The position numbers were made by a program, and so were the translations under genes. This document shows, in pieces, positions 9,029-63,072 of a DNA stretch of 64,000 nucleotides (its first letter is position 1; each line of letters opens with the position of its first letter). Source of the stretch: Patescibacteria group bacterium (GTDB lineage: Bacteria; Patescibacteriota; Patescibacteriia; XYB2-FULL-38-15); NCBI GenBank assembly GCA_041650995.1, contig JBAZJZ010000001.1, positions 71,891 to 135,890 on the forward strand, read 5' to 3'. The notes beneath the pieces were generated by a model that saw nothing but the letters and a program-made list of their open reading frames with translations, did not search any database and was not told the DNA's origin.

Positions 9029-9598
9029 GTGATGGAGGAGAGGAAAGTCGGCTGGGGAGACCGGGTATTAAAACCGATCGTCAAGCGAATCCCATCCTGG
9101 ATCAAGCCCAATCACTTGACCTACGTTCGCGCTGCGATGGTTGCGCCCGTGGTCGCCTGCCTTTGGTATGGCTTGAACATTCTAGCGGTGGTTTTTCTTT
9201 CTGTAGCCGTGTTGCTGGACGCGTTGGACGGCGCCATGGCACGAATCCGAAATCACCAGACTTCAAATGGCGAGTGGCTCGACGCTTACGCTGACAAGCT
9301 GCTTATCGTTGGATTGCTTCTGAGCTATGGCTGGGATCACTTCCCGCCAGTGCTCATCTGGCTCGTCTTCACGGTTGAAATTGTCCTTTGCCTTGGCCGG
9401 CCAATTAAAATCCAGCTCGGCAAATCGGGCAAGGCCAACGTTTTCGGCAAGATCAAGATGTGGCTACAGAGCGCGGCTGTCATTGGACTTGCGGCGCATG
9501 CCGACTGGACGCTTGTCGTTGCCAACGTCGCTCTTTGGGCGGCGCTTGGTTTCGCCGCGTTGAGTCTCGCTGGCCACATTTGGGACATTGCCGCATGA
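9029..9598 (+). CDS. CDP-alcohol phosphatidyltransferase family protein
   Basis: DALDGAMAR-x8-G-x3-DAYADK matches the D-G-x2-A-R...G-x3-D-x3-D motif; multi-TM; GC content clearly higher than the flanking genes. Confidence 0.65.
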   Translation: MMEERKVGWGDRVLKPIVKRIPSWIKPNHLTYVRAAMVAPVVACLWYGLNILAVVFLSVAVLLDALDGAMARIRNHQTSNGEWLDAYADKLLIVGLLLSYGWDHFPPVLIWLVFTVEIVLCLGRPIKIQLGKSGKANVFGKIKMWLQSAAVIGLAAHADWTLVVANVALWAALGFAALSLAGHIWDIAA

Positions 9599-16621: not shown

Positions 16622-17740
16622 ATGACGATTGGTATCGACGCCTCGCGCGCCAATAAAATCGAAAAAACCGGTACTGAGTGGTATTCTTATCATTTAATCC
16701 AGGAATTAAAAAAAATTACTGATCAAAAAGATCAGTTTATTTTGTATTCGCGGGAAAAATTGAGAAGTGAGTTGGGAGAATTGCCATCAAACTGGCAGAA
16801 CCGTGTTTTAAATTGGTCGCCCCAAAAATTATGGACGCAGGTGCGATTTTCCGCTGAAATGTGGCAGAGGCCGCCGGAGCTGCTTTTTGTTCCCGCCCAC
16901 ATTCTTCCAACGATTCGTCCGGAAAAAGTTGTGACAACTTGCCATGATGTCGCATTTCTCCGGTTGCCGCAAGTTTACGATTGGGCGGCTTTAAAATATC
17001 AGAAGTTAGCCGTGAAGTTTGCTATTCGCCACGCGACAAAAATTATTGCCGTTTCGGAATTTACAAAAAGTGAACTTGTAGAATTTTTTAAAATTTCTCC
17101 GGAGCGGATCGTAGTCGTGTCGAACGGTTACGACAGCGAACGGTATAAAATAATTGAGGATAGGGGAGAAGTGGAAAAAGTTTTAATAAAATATAATATT
17201 CGTGGCTCATACGTTTTATATACTGGCCGTTTGGAATTGAAAAAAAATATTCCAGGATTGATTGAGGCATTTAAAATTTTGAAAAAAAATTACAAACAGC
17301 CATTGAAATTAGTTTTGGTCGGCCAGCCGGGTTTTGGTTTTGAAAAAGTTACAAAAGCGATAATAGAAAATAATTTGTCCGATGAAATAATTATACCCGG
17401 CTGGGTGGGAAAAGACGATTTGCCATACTTAATGAACGGCGCGACAGCTTTTGTTTTTCCATCTCTTTACGAGGGTTTTGGCATTCCGGTTTTGGAAGCT
17501 ATGGCTTGTGGTACGCCGGTTGTTGCTTCTGGAATTCCCGCGCTTCGCGAGGTAGCGGGCGAGGCGGCGTATTTGGTTGACCCGTATTCCGTAGAAAATA
17601 TTGCCGAGGGGATGAATCGCGTTTTAACTGATGAACATTTACGAGAAGGTTTAAAAATCCGCGGGCTTCGGCGGGTAAAAGATTTTAGTTGGGAAAGGTG
17701 TGCGCGGGAAACGTGGAAAGTTTTAGAAAGTATAAAATAA
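16622..17740 (+). CDS. glycosyltransferase family 4 (GT-B, group 1)
   Basis: 372 aa; C-terminal EGFGIPVLEAMACGTPVVAS motif. Confidence 0.8.
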   Translation: MTIGIDASRANKIEKTGTEWYSYHLIQELKKITDQKDQFILYSREKLRSELGELPSNWQNRVLNWSPQKLWTQVRFSAEMWQRPPELLFVPAHILPTIRPEKVVTTCHDVAFLRLPQVYDWAALKYQKLAVKFAIRHATKIIAVSEFTKSELVEFFKISPERIVVVSNGYDSERYKIIEDRGEVEKVLIKYNIRGSYVLYTGRLELKKNIPGLIEAFKILKKNYKQPLKLVLVGQPGFGFEKVTKAIIENNLSDEIIIPGWVGKDDLPYLMNGATAFVFPSLYEGFGIPVLEAMACGTPVVASGIPALREVAGEAAYLVDPYSVENIAEGMNRVLTDEHLREGLKIRGLRRVKDFSWERCARETWKVLESIK

Positions 17741-17846
17741 AAAAAGAGAGGCCCGTCCGCAATTAGGATTTAGAGTCCTATTCGCAGGCAGACCTCAATG
17801 GGTGGGATAGAAGAGTCCCGAGAATCGAGACTCAGGCGGGAACGAA

Positions 17847-18101
17847 CTAGTAGAGATCGTCGGCGGGATCCTCGAGCTGCCCGCCGGTGGCGAGCAGTCG
17901 GATGTGGTCATCATCGCTGGCCCAGGCGATCGCGCGGTCGCGGTCGCGGGTCTGGCGCCAGACACCGTCGGGGTCCCTCTCCAGGTCGGCGGGGTCGTCC
18001 TCGCCGTCCTCACCACGCAGATCGGGCGGAAGCAGTTCGCGCAGTTCCTCGGACAGTTCGCCGCGGTTCAAGTCGCACTCCGCGAAACGTCGGCAAGCCA
18101 T
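17847..18101 (-). CDS. small acidic protein (about 84 aa) with high-GC, Actinobacteria-like codon usage; probable foreign gene or gene fragment
   Basis: MACRRFAECDLNRGELSEELRELLPPDLRGEDGEDDPADLERDPDG...; the three codon positions are strongly periodic (GC1 about 80%, GC2 about 50%, GC3 about 80%) in a genome that is otherwise about 38% GC; SD ggaaggagg sits 8 nt upstream. Confidence 0.4.
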   Translation of the reverse strand: MACRRFAECDLNRGELSEELRELLPPDLRGEDGEDDPADLERDPDGVWRQTRDRDRAIAWASDDDHIRLLATGGQLEDPADDLY

Positions 18102-18240
18102 TCTTCCCACTCCTCCTTCCCAACTCCGCTCGGATGAGCGAAGTGATGACCTCCTCCTGATAGCCATCCAGTTGCGTAGAAATTTTTTTCTAACCAACTG
18201 GATAATTATCAGGTTTATCCGCCGAAAAGGCGGGATTTTT

Positions 18241-18500
18241 AAAAAAAGTAGGGGCTTCAAGACTCGCGTCCATCCACCCCCTTGTCATCGCATTGCGCGA
18301 TATCTTCCCGTTACGGGAAGGGCATTCGGCTTTCCTCCCTCTGCTTGATGCGGGTGTCTGCCGCTGAATGTGGTCCAGAACACCCTGGTAGTGGCCTTGG
18401 CGGCTGCCAGCAGCGATAGCGTAATTTCGCCATCACCGTGGTCAGCGCCTTGGCCGTTTGCAATGCCTCATCGCCGTGACAGAGCTTCCCCACGTTCGGT
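18241..18500 (-). ncRNA. candidate structured ncRNA A (about 255 nt), GC-rich, identity unknown
   Basis: Minus-strand promoter TTGACA(17)TAAAGT from the 18529 palindrome; GC-rich body; ends with GGGG...CCCC hairpin plus U7 (plus-strand a7 at 18241-18247); a 74-aa ORF overlaps it, so a small protein cannot be excluded. Confidence 0.3.
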
Positions 18501-18528
18501 GCCTTTACTTTAACATATTTTAATAATT

Positions 18529-18548
18529 TTGTCAAGAGTTGTTGACAA
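18529..18548. promoter_or_regulatory. palindrome TTGTCAA-N6-TTGACAA (copy 1), providing a -35 TTGACA on both strands
   Basis: ttgtcaagagttgttgacaa; a perfect 7-bp inverted repeat with a 6-nt spacer; the identical motif recurs at 19868-19887. Confidence 0.55.
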
Positions 18549-18628
18549 AATATACAAAAAGCCCTAAGTTTATAGGGCTTTTCTTTATTCTTTATTTATG
18601 TTATGATAGGTGAATAATTAAATAAAAA

Positions 18629-19399
18629 TTGTTAATATTTATGTTGGAAAAAGAATTACAAAAATTAGGCTTATCAGATAAAGAAGCCAAGGTTTATTTA
18701 TCTTCAATGGAACTTGGCCCATCGCCGGTGCAAAGCATCTCGAGTAAAGCTGGCGTAAATCGTGCTACAACTTATGTGATGATTGAATCGCTAATCGGTC
18801 GCGGTTTGATGAGCTCTTTTGAAAAAGGAAAAAAGAGATTTTTTACGGCCGAGTCTCCAGATCAACTCCTCGCTATTCTTCACAAAGAGGAATTGGAGGC
18901 AAAAGAAAAAACGCGGCAATTTGAAGGAATTTTGCCGGAGTTAAAAATTCTTTTTTCTGCCGCAGAAGAAAAACCCCGTTTGAGATTTTTTGAGGGCATT
19001 GAAGGTCTTAAGGCTATTCAGGAGGATATATTGAAATCAAAATTTGAAAGTTTTGAAGAGGTCGTTGCTCTAGATGAATTTTATAAAATTTTTCCTCCTG
19101 ATGATAAGGATCATAGAAAAAAGTTAGCCGTTAAGACAGAAAAGATGTTAGTGAGGATTATTTATACTGGAGCTAAAGGAAAAGTTTTAGCAGCAAAAGA
19201 AGGGTTGAAAGAAAGAAGATATATTCCACCGGAAAAATTTCCGTTTTCTACAGATATTGTGATTTATGGGACTAAAGTTGCAATCGGAGTTTGTAGAGGT
19301 AAAATTATAGGAGTAATTATTGAAAGTAAAGAGGTCAGTGAGGCTTTGCGCGCGATTTTTAATTTGGCCTGGGAGGGTGCAGAAAAATATCAAAAGTAA
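18629..19399 (+). CDS. TrmB-family transcriptional regulator
   Basis: N-terminal winged HTH LGLSDKEAKVYLSSMELGPSPVQSISSKAGVNRATTYVMIESLIGRGL typical of TrmB; coiled-coil region; C-terminal effector-like domain. Confidence 0.65.
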   Translation: MLIFMLEKELQKLGLSDKEAKVYLSSMELGPSPVQSISSKAGVNRATTYVMIESLIGRGLMSSFEKGKKRFFTAESPDQLLAILHKEELEAKEKTRQFEGILPELKILFSAAEEKPRLRFFEGIEGLKAIQEDILKSKFESFEEVVALDEFYKIFPPDDKDHRKKLAVKTEKMLVRIIYTGAKGKVLAAKEGLKERRYIPPEKFPFSTDIVIYGTKVAIGVCRGKIIGVIIESKEVSEALRAIFNLAWEGAEKYQK

Positions 19400-19407
19400 A
19401 ATTAAAT

Positions 19408-19838
19408 AAAAAAAGCCCGAGATTGGTGCGCTCTTTCGCTTTGTCGCGATGGCGTTGCCACCAAATTCCCGGGCTGTGCGCCGTGGGAAAATCAGCAGTT
19501 TGCATGGTCTCCCAAGCGCGAAGATCGTCAGGATCACGTTGTTGAGTTTGTTGAGCCGTTGCCGTTGAGCGTCGTCACCCACCTTCTCCGCAGTTCGCGG
19601 TTCGTCGCTTCTGCAACCACTTCTTGCCTGTGGATTTGCCACCCCAAAACATGATCGAACCTCCTTTCGGAGGACAATATCTGAAGCAGCAAGCCAAGAC
19701 CCGAAGGCCTCAAAGCTAAGCCGCGCATTTCGGCAATTGTTGTTTGCCTCGCGGCAGTCGCTCGCTGACCTAGAAGAGTCAAGTACCCACTACAACAGAA
19801 AAGCCTCCAGTTCGCGGACGGGGAAGCCCCGTCACTTC
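19408..19838 (-). ncRNA. candidate structured ncRNA B (about 430 nt), GC-rich, identity unknown
   Basis: Minus-strand promoter TTGACA(17)TAAATT (plus 19846-19851 and 19869-19874); no convincing ORF; the 3' end is a long hairpin (plus 19415-19474) followed by U7. Confidence 0.4.
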
Positions 19839-19867
19839 TGCTTTTAATTTAACATAATCGCAGGGAT

Positions 19868-19887
19868 TTGTCAAGTCAAATTGACAA
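19868..19887. promoter_or_regulatory. palindrome TTGTCAA-N6-TTGACAA (copy 2), upstream of holB and at the 5' end of ncRNA B
   Basis: ttgtcaagtcaaattgacaa, followed by TATAAAT and the holB ATG at 19905. Confidence 0.55.
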
Positions 19888-19904
19888 ATTATAAATAAGA
19901 GACA

Positions 19905-51806: not shown

Positions 51807-51881
51807 AGTTTTGGAGCCAACTGAAAAGTTGGTTTTTGTATTTTCCCCTCTTAAGATAAGAGGGGATTAAGAGGAGGGAAC

Positions 51882-51910: not shown

Positions 51911-51916
51911 AGATAC

Positions 51917-52727
51917 GATACGGTGAAATGCCGTAAGCGGCTGGGTCCAAGAGGACGCCTTGGCTCTATCTGGCTCTTCATGCCACTGCGCAATGGATTG
52001 CGTGGTGGAATAATCTCCGCCCGTAAGGGAAAAATTAAAAAGCGAAGAAAGGGAGAAAAAGCGTCAATACCGGGCGCAAACAATCCGGTCTTGGCGCCAT
52101 GAAGATTCAGGAGATCTAAGGAGAGAGGGTTTGATTCCCTCCAGCCGCACTGGGTCTTGGTGGTAGCCGAGCAGCGGATTTCTGCATTGCTCACTGCGAT
52201 GTGGAAGGCCGACGGCAGCCATTGTGGGGTACGCGCTGCGAACCCCGCCATCAAGGCCAAAGATGGCGACTGACCTTGAATGGCAGTCGTCGATTCCTCG
52301 CTGACCTTCAAGAGTTGGCGAGCAGGGACTCTCTCTGCCAAGGGAGGGTCCGCCTGAAGCTTCCGCGAGCCTCGGCTCGCGTTGGCACAAAGTTGCGATC
52401 GCACAGCTCTGGTCATGGCTACCATGGGGATTTCCCCGAAAGCCTAAGTGCGATCGCGGCTCGCGACGTTCCATAGGGAGACGCTCGCGTTTCCTGAAGT
52501 TTCCCAGTCTCGTGCTGGGCGGAACGGCGCGGAATTTCAGCCCCCGGCGGACTTGCCCGCGCGATGGCGCTCGCATGCGTGAGCACGCGAAAAAGGCAAG
52601 TGTGGGTACCCCGGCTCTTCTGCGCCGCCCAGAAGAGCCACTTCAAAAGATCCTCTAAGCGCAGTTCGCTGCGCGGAGAGGTCTGCGATACGCGCCGTGA
52701 TGATTCATTCGTCACGGCGTTCTTTTT
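51917..52727 (+). ncRNA. candidate large structured ncRNA C (about 810 nt), GC-rich, with an embedded tRNA-like acceptor/T-arm domain; identity unknown
   Basis: GC much higher than the genome; only short overlapping ORFs in all frames with junk-like translations; 5' GCGGCTG (51937-51943) pairs perfectly with CAGCCGC (52142-52148) next to a T-arm GAGGG-TTTGATT-CCCTC; bounded by a promoter and a strong terminator. Confidence 0.5.
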
Positions 52728-52728
52728 T
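52693..52728 (+). terminator. intrinsic terminator of ncRNA C
   Basis: cgccgtgatgattcattcgtcacggcg followed by ttctttttt. Confidence 0.7.
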
Positions 52729-52738
52729 ATCTCTAATC

Positions 52739-60856: not shown

Positions 60857-61053
60857 ATTTTATCATTTTAATTGTAAAAATCGTTGCTAAATATCGGCGG
60901 CGGTTTTTTTATTTAAAACTCTTGACAAAACAGAGAAAAAACATTTAAGTATAGTGAGGTTTGCCCAATAGCGGGTAGGCTCGCCTTGCCGTCTAGGCAG
61001 GCTTCGTTCCTTTGAAATTCGCTTCTTGGCCATTGGGCCAAAGGAGAGAAACA

Positions 61054-63072
61054 ATGAAAAAGGTGGTTGTCCTTTTCGTTCTGGTATTCGGGCTCATCCG
61101 AACGGCTTCCGCTTCGGCGGATCAGCCTGCCGATGAGACAGGGGAATCCCAGACCTACCTTGTCCAATGGGGAGATCGGCTGCCTCGGGTGGCAGCGCAA
61201 TTCGGTTTGACCCAGGAAGAGCTTTTGGCAGCCAATCCGCGCTCGGCCTATGGGATGAGCTGCGGTAATCCGCACACAGTCACGTTGCGTAATGGCGAAC
61301 GCCAAGCTCTCTGCGGTCGGCCAAGGCCATACCTCATTGCCGGCAAGACGCTTGTCATTCCCGTGCCCCGCGCCACGCTCCAGACTGAGAGTGTTCGGCT
61401 GAACGCCGAAGTTGTGGCGCTCCGCGCGGAGATGGCTCAATTGCGGAAGGCGCGCGAGACGGAGAAGTCCGAGCTTGCGGCCCTCGCGCAGGAACGCGAC
61501 AATCTCCAGAGCGAGAACGAATCGCTCGTTGCCGCGAAGGCTGAGCTTCAAGGCAAGTACAGCGAATCCCAGGCGGACTTCCGGGCGGTGTTTTCCCGAC
61601 AGCCGAAGCAGATTGAAGTTCAGAAGACGAATTTCAACCACATCGTTTTGGCAGTTGCCGTCACCGCTTTCGTGTTTGTGCTCATCATTCTCGCCATCTT
61701 GTCCCGCAAGGGCAAGAACGAGAAGAAGTTTGATCGCCTTGTCCGGCTTGTCCAGCCGAGCGTTTTGGAACAGGCCGAGAAGAACAAGCAGCGCGGCGCA
61801 GAGCTTGACCAACTAGCGAAGGAACTCGATCAACAGAAGCGAGAGGCAGACGACCTGCAAGCCAAACTGCAAGAGCAGAAGAGCGAGCAGGAGCGTTTGG
61901 GCAATGATCTTGCGACGCGCGAGGCAACCCTGAAGCGGGAGCAAGAAGAACTTGCCACGGCGAAGCGAGCCGTGGAAGAAAGGGAAGCTTTCTGCACCCG
62001 CCGTGATGACGAAATTCATGAAGCCGAGCGCGGACTCCTGGAACGCAGCGAAGCTTTCCGCGGGCATGTCCGGGCCGAAGAAGAACGCCTGAGAACAGAG
62101 AGCGTTGCTGTCGCGCGCGGCAAGGAAGAATTCCTTGCTGCACAGCGCGATCTGGAAGAGAAGAGAGCGCAGGTTGAAGCTGGATTGCGGACTCTTGAAG
62201 AAGATAGTCCCGCGATCCAGAGAGACAGGGAAGAAGCTGATCGGCGCGTCAGAGAAGCCGAGACTCGCGAGGAGAGTGCGAAGCGCGCCGCGGAAGACGC
62301 GGCGCAACGCGTCAGAGAAGCCGAGACTCGCGAAGCTGCGGCCACGAGACAGACAGAAGAAGCAGAAAGTCGAAAGGGCGCCGCAGACGAAGCAGAGAGG
62401 ATTCTCGCTCGCCGCGAAGAGGAAGTTGGGGGCAGGGAAGAAGAACTGCACCGGCTTCAAGATCAACTGAGACAGGAACGAACCGACTTCGAAGGGCAGC
62501 TTGGAGCGGCAGAACATACGCTTGAAGCTGCTGGCGGACTTGAGAAGGCAAAACGCATCATCAGCCGCGCCAAGCGCAAGGAAGAAATTGTTGCGGCTCT
62601 TGATAAGCGGGAGGTAGCTATTGCCGACCGCGAAGAAGTGTGCGCCCACCGCGAACACGAACTCGCCCTTTGGGCAGCGCAACTCGGAGCTCTGGAGGAC
62701 GACACTTCAGACGGGGAGGAAACCGTTCAGCGGCTTACCTTGGGAGCGGATGACACTTTTCAGGACGCCGCTGGGAGCATCACTTGCGCGGCTTGCGGCG
62801 GGAAATTTCCCGATCGCGGCGCGTTCGACGCGCACAAGGCGAGTTGCCCCAAAGCCGCGCCACACACACCGACTATTGTCGGGGCTCCGGCAGGAGGGCG
62901 GGCATCGGTTGTAGCGCCTCCTCCCAAACCGGTCCCGGGTGAGACTGTTCATGACTCTTCGTCGTCTGAACCCGTAGTCTACTGCCAACACTGCAAGGAG
63001 GGGTTTTCTCCCGAGGTCTACGCAGCAGAACACGCAACACACGACGAGGGATTGGCAGGAAAGAAGGGCTAA
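61054..63072 (+). CDS. GC-rich secreted/membrane-anchored LysM - TM - long coiled-coil - tandem C2H2-like zinc-finger protein (compositional outlier, probable horizontal acquisition)
   Basis: 672 aa at about 60% GC versus about 38% for the genome; signal peptide; LysM-like YLVQWGDRLPRVAAQFGLTQEELLAANP...IAGKTLVIP; TM LAVAVTAFVFVLIILAIL; E/R/A-rich coiled coil with repeated REAETRE units; C-terminal CAACGGKF..H....C and CQHCKEGF...H..H motifs. Confidence 0.6.
   Translation: MKKVVVLFVLVFGLIRTASASADQPADETGESQTYLVQWGDRLPRVAAQFGLTQEELLAANPRSAYGMSCGNPHTVTLRNGERQALCGRPRPYLIAGKTLVIPVPRATLQTESVRLNAEVVALRAEMAQLRKARETEKSELAALAQERDNLQSENESLVAAKAELQGKYSESQADFRAVFSRQPKQIEVQKTNFNHIVLAVAVTAFVFVLIILAILSRKGKNEKKFDRLVRLVQPSVLEQAEKNKQRGAELDQLAKELDQQKREADDLQAKLQEQKSEQERLGNDLATREATLKREQEELATAKRAVEEREAFCTRRDDEIHEAERGLLERSEAFRGHVRAEEERLRTESVAVARGKEEFLAAQRDLEEKRAQVEAGLRTLEEDSPAIQRDREEADRRVREAETREESAKRAAEDAAQRVREAETREAAATRQTEEAESRKGAADEAERILARREEEVGGREEELHRLQDQLRQERTDFEGQLGAAEHTLEAAGGLEKAKRIISRAKRKEEIVAALDKREVAIADREEVCAHREHELALWAAQLGALEDDTSDGEETVQRLTLGADDTFQDAAGSITCAACGGKFPDRGAFDAHKASCPKAAPHTPTIVGAPAGGRASVVAPPPKPVPGETVHDSSSSEPVVYCQHCKEGFSPEVYAAEHATHDEGLAGKKG

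Follow-up and report, generated by a model that had tools for sequence, protein, structure and literature searches.

What does the GC-rich stretch at positions 18241 to 18548 of this patescibacterial sequence encode? The stretch lies in a 64,000-nucleotide (nt) portion of contig JBAZJZ010000001.1, the whole of which is hereafter called the window, and a preliminary description of it had left the choice between a small protein and a noncoding RNA. Comparison with related loci favoured the RNA. On the minus strand, the stretch carries a promoter-to-terminator unit for a structured RNA which, judged by sequence searches, belongs to a family that is absent from Rfam and restricted to a narrow, Falkowbacteria-like clade of Patescibacteria. 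Our preferred account, to which we give a probability of roughly 40%, is that this RNA is the terminator-ended leader of a gene for a small acidic protein.

The unit opens with a sigma-70 type promoter in which a TTGACA -35 box (18535-18530, minus strand) is separated by a 17-nt spacer from an extended -10 element, TG-T-TAAAGT (18515-18507). In a promoter scan this site (18535-18507) agreed with 10 of 12 consensus positions and carried the additional TG, and it is almost invariant across the 15 homologous loci described below. Transcription would begin about 7 nt beyond the -10 element and proceed through an RNA of ~260 nt (18500 to 18241), the body of which is 57% GC as compared with 42% for the window. 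The predicted 3′ end is an intrinsic terminator (18281-18241; -13.7 kcal/mol) in which a GGGGG...GCCCC stem, GGGGGUGGAUGGACGCGAGUCUUGAAGCCCC, is followed by UAC-U7. This terminator was not flagged by a simple scan because its stem is broken by a 4x4 internal loop; in the homologs the GGGG...CCCC terminators have perfect stems of 12-13 base pairs (bp; -22 to -24 kcal/mol) followed by U6-7, and the copy in the locus L013 was flagged. The inner stem covaries across homologs, reading GGAC/GUCU, GAGU/ACUC or fully paired variants. A sigma-70 promoter and a G+C-rich hairpin with a U-run together mark a transcription unit at the sequence level, and the parts that the preliminary description had placed here, namely the minus-strand promoter near a palindrome at 18529, the GC-rich body and the GGGG...CCCC hairpin with its U7 tract, were all found, so that its promoter-to-terminator unit is supported. 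The minus-strand fold was also more stable than shuffled sequences (z = -3.6; plus strand, z = -2.5).

Relatives were gathered through homologs of the neighbouring TrmB-family protein, homologs of the small protein, a GTDB-wide locus search and a DNA pattern search, which yielded 15 distinct RNA loci (the window, L001, L004, L005, L007, L008, L009, L013, L014, L087, L088, L089, L096, L098 and L099) with RNAs of 237-386 nt. Read from the divergent TrmB gene, the order of parts is the same in 15 of 15: a hairpin, a palindrome with the promoter, the RNA, its terminator, a long hairpin, a ribosome-binding site (RBS), the small acidic open reading frame (ORF) and a conserved hairpin. The RNA and the small ORF are never separated; in L088 the far neighbour is an M23 peptidase gene instead of the GT4 glycosyltransferase gene, and the unit still adjoins TrmB. 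Among the TrmB loci of GTDB species representatives, nhmmer detected the RNA in 6 of 80 (L007, L008, L009, L013, L014 and L028), and a covariance model of its 5′ domain, run on 67 of the remaining 74, added no homolog; it also gave no second copy in the window. A 30-nt core pattern matched three JGI metagenome contigs, all from the same clade, and no viral contigs, and blastn against phage and plasmid collections gave chance matches only. In Rfam 15 there was no match at the gathering score, at E≤10 for the region or at E≤5 for the window, and none for the full-length homologs at E≤2; a full-text literature search found no description of the RNA.

Full-length members of the family open with a three-way junction made of P1 (GGGG/CCCC), P2 (UCCGG/CCGGA) and P3 (CUGCC/GGCGG). 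Within P2 lie a small hairpin and an internal loop that hardly varies, the tip of P3 is variable, a GCCGGC hairpin comes after the junction, and a stretch of ~30 nt, GGUUACAGCCUAAAACCGGCCAAGGACCGG, is nearly invariant. In a 14-sequence alignment of this 5′ domain, compared with 500 shuffles, 99.1% of cells formed standard pairs as against 94.4% in the shuffles, seven pairs had changed on both sides (reached by 1/500 shuffles) and the covariation score was 0.226 as against 0.133 (reached by 0/500). All of these measures collapsed once the pairing partners were slid by 1-3 columns. Candidate K-turn and T-box readings of the conserved loops were dropped after inspection by eye.

After the junction, the modules follow one another in the order of an optional hairpin, hairpin D, a single-stranded Shine-Dalgarno (SD) stretch, a mini-ORF running through a GC hairpin, an optional hairpin and the terminator. 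In the window, both the minimum-free-energy and the centroid structures contain a long variable hairpin, GGCC-AA-GGCG...CGCC-AA-GGCC (18393-18455, minus strand), an optional insert that is found in some homologs, missing in others and hypervariable, and for which no usable consensus fold was obtained across homologs. Antisense to the variable hairpin of L014, at 329-374 on the plus strand of that locus, we noted a JUMPstart match (ops-like GGCGGTAG) of 31.2 bits against a gathering score of 35, which is probably due to chance. Hairpin D (18350-18388, minus strand) has an outer GGGUGU/ACACCC stem that occurs in all homologs, with one pair changed on both sides, and an inner stem region that ranges from a tetraloop to a 20-nt arm. 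The predicted fold at 18287-18320 (minus strand) has two small hairpins, CUUCCCG-UAA-CGGGAAG and AUCGC-GCAAU-GCGAU; other homologs carry GCGCG-GGG-CGCGC at this place, with or without GCAGC-AGGAAUA-GCUGC.

In the window an SD-like GGGAGGA (18333-18339, minus strand) is followed by the mini-ORF, AUG CCC UUC CCG UAA (MPFP*; 18311-18325), which makes up the last codons of the 74-amino-acid (aa) frame discussed below. All 13 homologs listed have GGAGGA, and in most a start codon stands 7-8 nt downstream of it: seven members use AUG, one GUG and four the near-cognate AUU or ACG, with CUG or UUG at 14 nt in two others. The mini-ORFs are 4-15 codons long, in the same frame, and would encode MPYPGTAARGAH, MHRYRTAARGAH, MHRLRTAARGAH, MHRRSSAARGAQQQE, MTAAQGAQQQE, VRIFAARSAHSGS and similar peptides. 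From the start to a GCA GCG CGG GGC GCG core there are 1, 2, 3 or 5 codons depending on the member, and the frame is held across about five indel classes; with the distance in every case divisible by three, the frame would seem to matter. At the nucleotide level the core hardly varies, even at synonymous sites, the window/L096 variant would encode an unrelated 4-residue peptide, and the CCG to CUG change, the one difference between these two, keeps a hairpin pair as G-U and alters the amino acid. Taken together, these observations suggest that translation of the stretch is more likely to matter than the peptide. Six members place the stop codon 7-12 nt ahead of the terminator stem; in three others the gap is 14-17 nt, and in four, the window among them, it is 26-29 nt. 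An apparent SD-led short ORF just before a predicted intrinsic terminator, the arrangement typical of leader peptides, was found in the 13 listed homologs and in L099, and no clustered codons for a sensed amino acid were seen in the mini-ORF peptides (MPFP, MPYPGTAARGAH, MHRRSSAARGAQQQE and others).

The gene that this leader would serve begins ~140 nt past the terminator and encodes an 84-aa acidic protein, MACRRF...LLATGGQLEDPADDLY, with a UAG stop (17847-18101, minus strand). Sequence comparison places a hairpin, CUUCGCUC-AUCC-GAGCGGAG, and then the RBS GGAAGGAGGAG and the AUG at 18099-18145 (minus strand). Between the window, L013 and L087, 21-23 of 31-38 differences in the small ORF fall at third codon positions and the ratio of nonsynonymous to synonymous rates (dN/dS) is 0.10-0.28, a substitution pattern indicating that the gene is real and under purifying selection. 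Only 22 relatives were found among 5.8 billion protein clusters, all from Patescibacteria-like sources; family members are 62-87 aa long and conserve the motifs DPADL, DG[VI]WR, DRDRAAD and RLLxTGG. The protein had no match in Pfam, NCBIfam or PADLOC, and its AlphaFold model, with a pLDDT of 55, is of low confidence. The conserved sequence just 5′ of the start codon does not share one frame between L001 and the window, which argues for conservation at the RNA level and not for an N-terminal extension of the protein.

Two hairpins flank this gene in all loci. Between the RNA terminator and the small ORF stands a long hairpin of ~19 + 6 bp (18156-18213, minus strand; the nhmmer ‘mid’ block), nearly perfect over ~25 bp and kept by compensatory changes. 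On the other side, a terminal hairpin, GGUCUGCCUGCGAAUAGGACUCUAAAUCCUAAUUGCGGACGGGCC followed by U7 (17739-17796, minus strand; the nhmmer ‘hp’ block, E 1e-15 to 1e-22), is conserved more strongly than any other part of the locus, with an invariant 7-nt loop, CUCUAAA, on a covarying stem. This loop has the form of an anticodon loop with the anticodon CUA, and every allele of the small ORF ends in UAG; GGACUCUAAAUCC is presumably equal to the anticodon arm of tRNA-Pyl.

We propose that most transcripts from the promoter would end at the terminator hairpin ~260 nt on, giving an abundant small RNA, and that a regulated minority would read through into the small-protein gene. The level of read-through would be set by translation of the mini-ORF, whose stop lies 7-29 nt before the terminator stem, and/or by the 5′ three-way junction, and the neighbouring TrmB-family regulator would probably control the promoter through the palindrome. 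The comparisons show the sequence signals, the conservation of the family, the covariation of the 5′ domain, the noncoding status of the 74-aa frame, the purifying selection on the downstream gene and the deletion described below; transcription itself, read-through, a role for the mini-ORF and control by TrmB are inferred. A leader is favoured by how strictly RNA and ORF are linked and by where the SD and mini-ORF are placed; in addition, no promoter that was both strong and conserved was found between the terminator and the small ORF. The locus resembles the leader-peptide attenuators of trp, his and pheA in its promoter, its short SD-led ORF, its intrinsic terminator and its same-strand gene, and in several homologs the mini-ORF stop, 7-12 nt from the terminator stem, is close enough for ribosome interference. 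It differs from them in lacking a run of regulatory codons, in that no conserved antiterminator/anti-antiterminator set was found, in having 150-300 nt of conserved structure 5′ of the SD, and in that ~140 nt with a long hairpin precede the gene, which encodes an orphan acidic protein.

Several observations weigh against a leader. The window/L096 variant does not preserve the peptide (MPFP/MPFL versus xxTAARGAH), and several homologs have near-cognate starts only (ACG, AUU, CUG). No antiterminator conserved across members was found, the best alternative pairings differing between terminator variants: in loci of the L007/L009/L013 type, pairing is possible between the SD region and the 3′ arm of the terminator (-13 to -17 kcal/mol), and other variants have other best partners. 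The distance of ~140 nt and the long hairpin separate the terminator from the gene, and within that hairpin (18156-18213) a weak promoter-like cTGAYAA-17-AAAAAT (cTGACAA), flagged in L013, could drive the small ORF. The perfect terminators of most homologs suggest efficient termination, as would fit an autonomous small RNA (sRNA). The covariation test used an alignment that had been fitted to the model; the shallow phylogeny is a further caveat to that test, and it means that the constant synteny may be simple inheritance. Finally, the window copy is without the best-supported structural domain of the family.

Some of these points speak for a stand-alone sRNA, strongly expressed and acting in trans or by binding a protein, with the small-protein gene as a neighbour that has its own weak promoter. 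We consider this almost as probable as a leader, which we rank slightly higher. The near-consensus promoter and the strong terminators of the homologs would suit such an RNA, as would the hairpin terminators that bracket the RNA gene for both strands, the promoter-like site downstream of the terminator and the fact that no conserved antiterminator was found; the 5′ three-way junction is also more conserved than a simple attenuator needs. Yet the internal promoter-like site is weak (9/12) and poorly conserved in the L004/L005/L007 variants, RNA and ORF never part in the 15 loci, an SD and mini-ORF just before the terminator are left unexplained, and no target or partner protein can be named. 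The dual-function sRNAs RNAIII/hld, SR1/SR1P and SgrS/SgrT likewise combine a structured sRNA with its own SD, a short ORF and an intrinsic terminator, but here the peptide varies across the family, and there is no kinship with them in sequence or structure. A CsrB-like protein sponge was considered and rejected: a manual count gave ~7 GGA motifs, near the expectation from base composition. Whether leader or sRNA, both interpretations agree that this is a new structured RNA family, that the 74-aa ORF is no gene and that there is no relation to RNase P.

The locus also recalls type III toxin-antitoxin systems (ToxIN-like) in pairing a strong RNA and a terminator that limits read-through with a protein gene, but the RNA is without tandem repeats and the protein, 62-87 aa and acidic, has no confident fold and no PADLOC match. 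A repeat search, together with PADLOC, Pfam and NCBIfam, found neither a tandem-repeat RNA nor a ToxN/AbiE-like toxin at the locus.

The absence of the 5′ domain from the window copy raises the question of whether this copy is a decaying remnant, its functional core deleted, with an RNA that may be transcribed but nonfunctional. A near-identical locus is L098, a Logan assembly of SRR13394437, which encodes a small protein 99% identical to that of the window. Its RNA is the window RNA but for one base, one U in the U-tract and 81 extra nt, which sit between GUCACGGC and GAUGAGG. Aligned to L098 (2024-2139), the deletion junction in the window, where GTCACGGC meets GATGAGG, falls between 18473 and 18472 (18466-18480, minus strand). 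The missing 81 nt comprise P2, P3 and the P1-closing part of the three-way junction, and the 5′-domain covariance model gives 71 bits in L098 and no match in the window. The near-identity to L098, the loss of the only domain with solid covariation and the CGGC direct repeats that flank the deletion, as expected for slippage, would all fit decay. Nevertheless, the window retains an intact promoter, SD, mini-ORF, terminator and downstream gene, the family is modular and its other members do without other modules, and an assembly artefact is a possible source of the deletion; we hold a decaying remnant to be unlikely. The deletion either arose recently, at the level of strains, or is an artefact of assembly. 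A database protein identical to the 74-aa ORF, from a library of 1.84 billion, probably comes from the same genome and is therefore no independent confirmation of it. Lacking its 5′ domain, the window copy could be impaired or under different regulation.

A riboswitch-type leader that senses a metabolite, a tRNA or a protein, with the three-way junction as sensor and the terminator as expression platform, appears improbable. Like riboswitch and T-box leaders, the RNA is a long, GC-rich, structured leader with a conserved multi-helix junction and a terminator at its end, upstream of a gene, and the nearly invariant ~30-nt stretch could be read in the same way. Against this, no match to an Rfam riboswitch or T-box, no T-box sequence and no conserved switching helix were found, and the regulated gene encodes an orphan acidic protein and not a metabolic or transport protein, a context unlike that of known riboswitch regulons. 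Moreover, the window copy lacks the putative sensor, the domain for which covariation was seen in 14 homologs.

The 74-aa ORF (18311-18535, minus strand), which the preliminary description had correctly located, fares far worse as a gene. Its TTG start codon is the first codon of the -35 hexamer and would thus lie upstream of any transcript from this promoter, and no RBS was found ahead of it. In related loci the frame is broken, and tblastn returned short, fragmentary pieces in different frames that reflect nucleotide similarity. There was no match in Pfam or NCBIfam, and a phmmer search of 1.84 billion representatives recovered the identical sequence and one spurious repeat protein only. Homology under purifying selection had been named as the sign of a small gene here, and what was found is a match of the ORF to itself. 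What speaks for a protein is that the frame is open over 74 codons and that a gene caller predicted the same ORF in the public record (P0143); the identical database protein is evidently such a gene-finder call from the same or a near-identical genome. Of the two possibilities raised at the outset, then, the RNA stood and the 74-aa protein, on the broken frame and the start within the -35 box, did not. On comparative grounds the ORF is refuted as a gene; it appears spurious and should not be annotated, and we regard it as very improbable that it encodes a protein.

Least probable of all is a divergent RNase P RNA or transfer-messenger RNA (tmRNA), to which the motif GGGAGGAAAGCCGAAUGCCC at 18339-18320 (minus strand) had led through its likeness to the RNase P CR-I/P4 strand: the string GGGAGGAAAG does resemble CR-I and is the only likeness to bacterial RNase P RNA, and the 5′ GGGG and Ala-rich in-frame mini-ORF faintly recall tmRNA, but a cmscan-type search of Rfam gave no covariance-model match (E≤10), an ACAG[AG]A-type P4 partner (ACAGAA; ACAGAAnnCGGCUUA, the CR-V strand) occurs nowhere in the RNA, ARAGORN found no tmRNA, the 3′ end is a terminator hairpin with a U-tract and not a T-arm with CCA, and a start codon lies 7-8 nt downstream of the CR-I-like string in the homologs, where the string behaves as a ribosome-binding site.

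How might the promoter be controlled? The palindrome TTGTCAA-CAACTC-TTGACAA (18528-18549), which is conserved in related loci, supplies the -35 box with its right arm. In the 64-kb window TTGTCAA-N6-TTGACAAA occurs at two sites, 18528-18549 and 19867-19888, and 100 shuffles gave 0 matches. Both sites coincide with promoters (18535 and 19874) of minus-strand GC-rich units that flank the TrmB-family gene, and the motif also occurs downstream of TrmB homologs in ~35 far more distant Patescibacteria loci. The palindrome at 18528-18549 may be an operator or a pair of back-to-back -35 boxes. The latter is possible at 18529, where the left arm would be the -35 box of the divergent TrmB gene, but fails at 19868 because the holB ATG lies only 18 nt beyond the palindrome there. 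It is therefore reasonable to take the palindrome as a candidate operator that a dimeric regulator would bind, the TrmB homolog being a plausible one.

This bears on a further claim, namely that the promoter is nearly identical over ~30 nt to one at 51881 and that the two promoters are paralogous. In a comparison within the window only 21 of 29 positions agree with the 51881 promoter, as against 20 of 29 for the promoters at 19874 and 60922; the positions shared with the 51881/51882 promoter are mostly sigma-70 consensus and the AAA after the -35 box. The match is no better than that to other consensus promoters, and a specific paralogy is not supported; the promoter to which this one is related is that at 19874. 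The associated suggestion of co-regulated or duplicated elements does not survive for the pairing with 51881, but co-regulation does for the promoters at 18535 and 19874, which share the unique palindrome. The promoter of the ~810-nt RNA (51912-52725, plus strand) lacks the palindrome seen at 18529 and 19868, and that RNA had no match in Rfam even at E≤5.

The TrmB-family gene (18641-19399, plus strand) is divergent from the RNA. Upstream of the RNA promoter, a hairpin with T-runs on both sides, AAAAGCCCUAUAAACUUAGGGCUUUU (18556-18582), is terminator-like on both strands; its hairpin potential is retained in related loci and its sequence is variable. Its probable role is to insulate the RNA gene from TrmB. 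Relative to L013, the TrmB gene is a mosaic, the N-terminal, DNA-binding half having ~80% nucleotide identity and the C-terminal half being unalignable, and the flanking genes are ~83% identical. An exchange of the unit between distant genomes, suggested by the 57% identity of TrmB to L013 as against 90% for the small protein, was rejected: in a blastn comparison the flanking genes of L013 were roughly as similar as those of L001, and divergence was confined to the C-terminal half of TrmB, which reduces the claim to local mosaicism.

Beyond TrmB lies the sister unit (~19400-19880, minus strand), which is of the same design and had no match in Rfam: after the promoter at 19874 comes a structured RNA, a CCUCC-GAAA-GGAGG hairpin sequesters the SD, and an ORF of 25-28 aa (MFWGGKSTGKKWLQKRRTANCGEGG, 25 aa in the window) is conserved. 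In distant loci, the interval between TrmB and holB shows the same CCUCC...GGAGG...AUGGGC tiny-ORF pattern. A broader and rather unlikely proposition is that the RNA, the mini-ORF, the small protein and the sister unit 19400-19880 form an unrecognised Patescibacteria-specific regulon under the widely conserved TrmB-family regulator, acting through TTGTCAA-N6-TTGACAAA. Were this true, GC-rich leaders with translated micro-ORFs would gate orphan small proteins, the three-way junction would be a new class of sensor and the CUCUAAA-loop hairpin a new protein- or RNA-binding module.

On the far side of the RNA, a terminator-like hairpin on the plus strand (18218-18234; an equivalent was flagged in L013) shares its A/T tract with the RNA terminator and stands back to back with it. 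The hairpin behind GT4 lacks a plus-strand U-run, and read-through from GT4 would consequently run antisense across the small ORF to 18218-18234. The wider neighbourhood of the window, 42% G+C overall, includes genes for a DUF4012 protein, MreB, the GT4 glycosyltransferase, the TrmB-family regulator and DNA polymerase III delta′, and the best homologs of the neighbouring proteins come from Patescibacteria/Falkowbacteria metagenome bins. Intergenic GC-rich stretches lie at 17771-18190, 18251-18520, 19411-19850 and 51911-52730. Coding islands of 56-59% G+C also occur, at 9029-9598 (plus strand; a CDP-alcohol phosphatidyltransferase) and 61012-63072 (plus strand; a LysM protein), which means that G+C richness alone does not mark RNA genes in the window.

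For the window itself the consequences are modest: annotation should leave out the 74-aa ORF, the lead to RNase P was wrong and this copy is shortened. More generally, the GC-rich islands of these AT-rich genomes include both structured RNAs and small protein genes, and the RNA described here represents a family for which Rfam has no entry. Most Patescibacteria (the candidate phyla radiation) are unculturable, and almost nothing is known of gene regulation in the phylum. With a covarying junction, a micro-ORF, an orphan protein and a widespread TrmB regulator next door, the locus offers a testable handle on how these bacteria regulate their genes.

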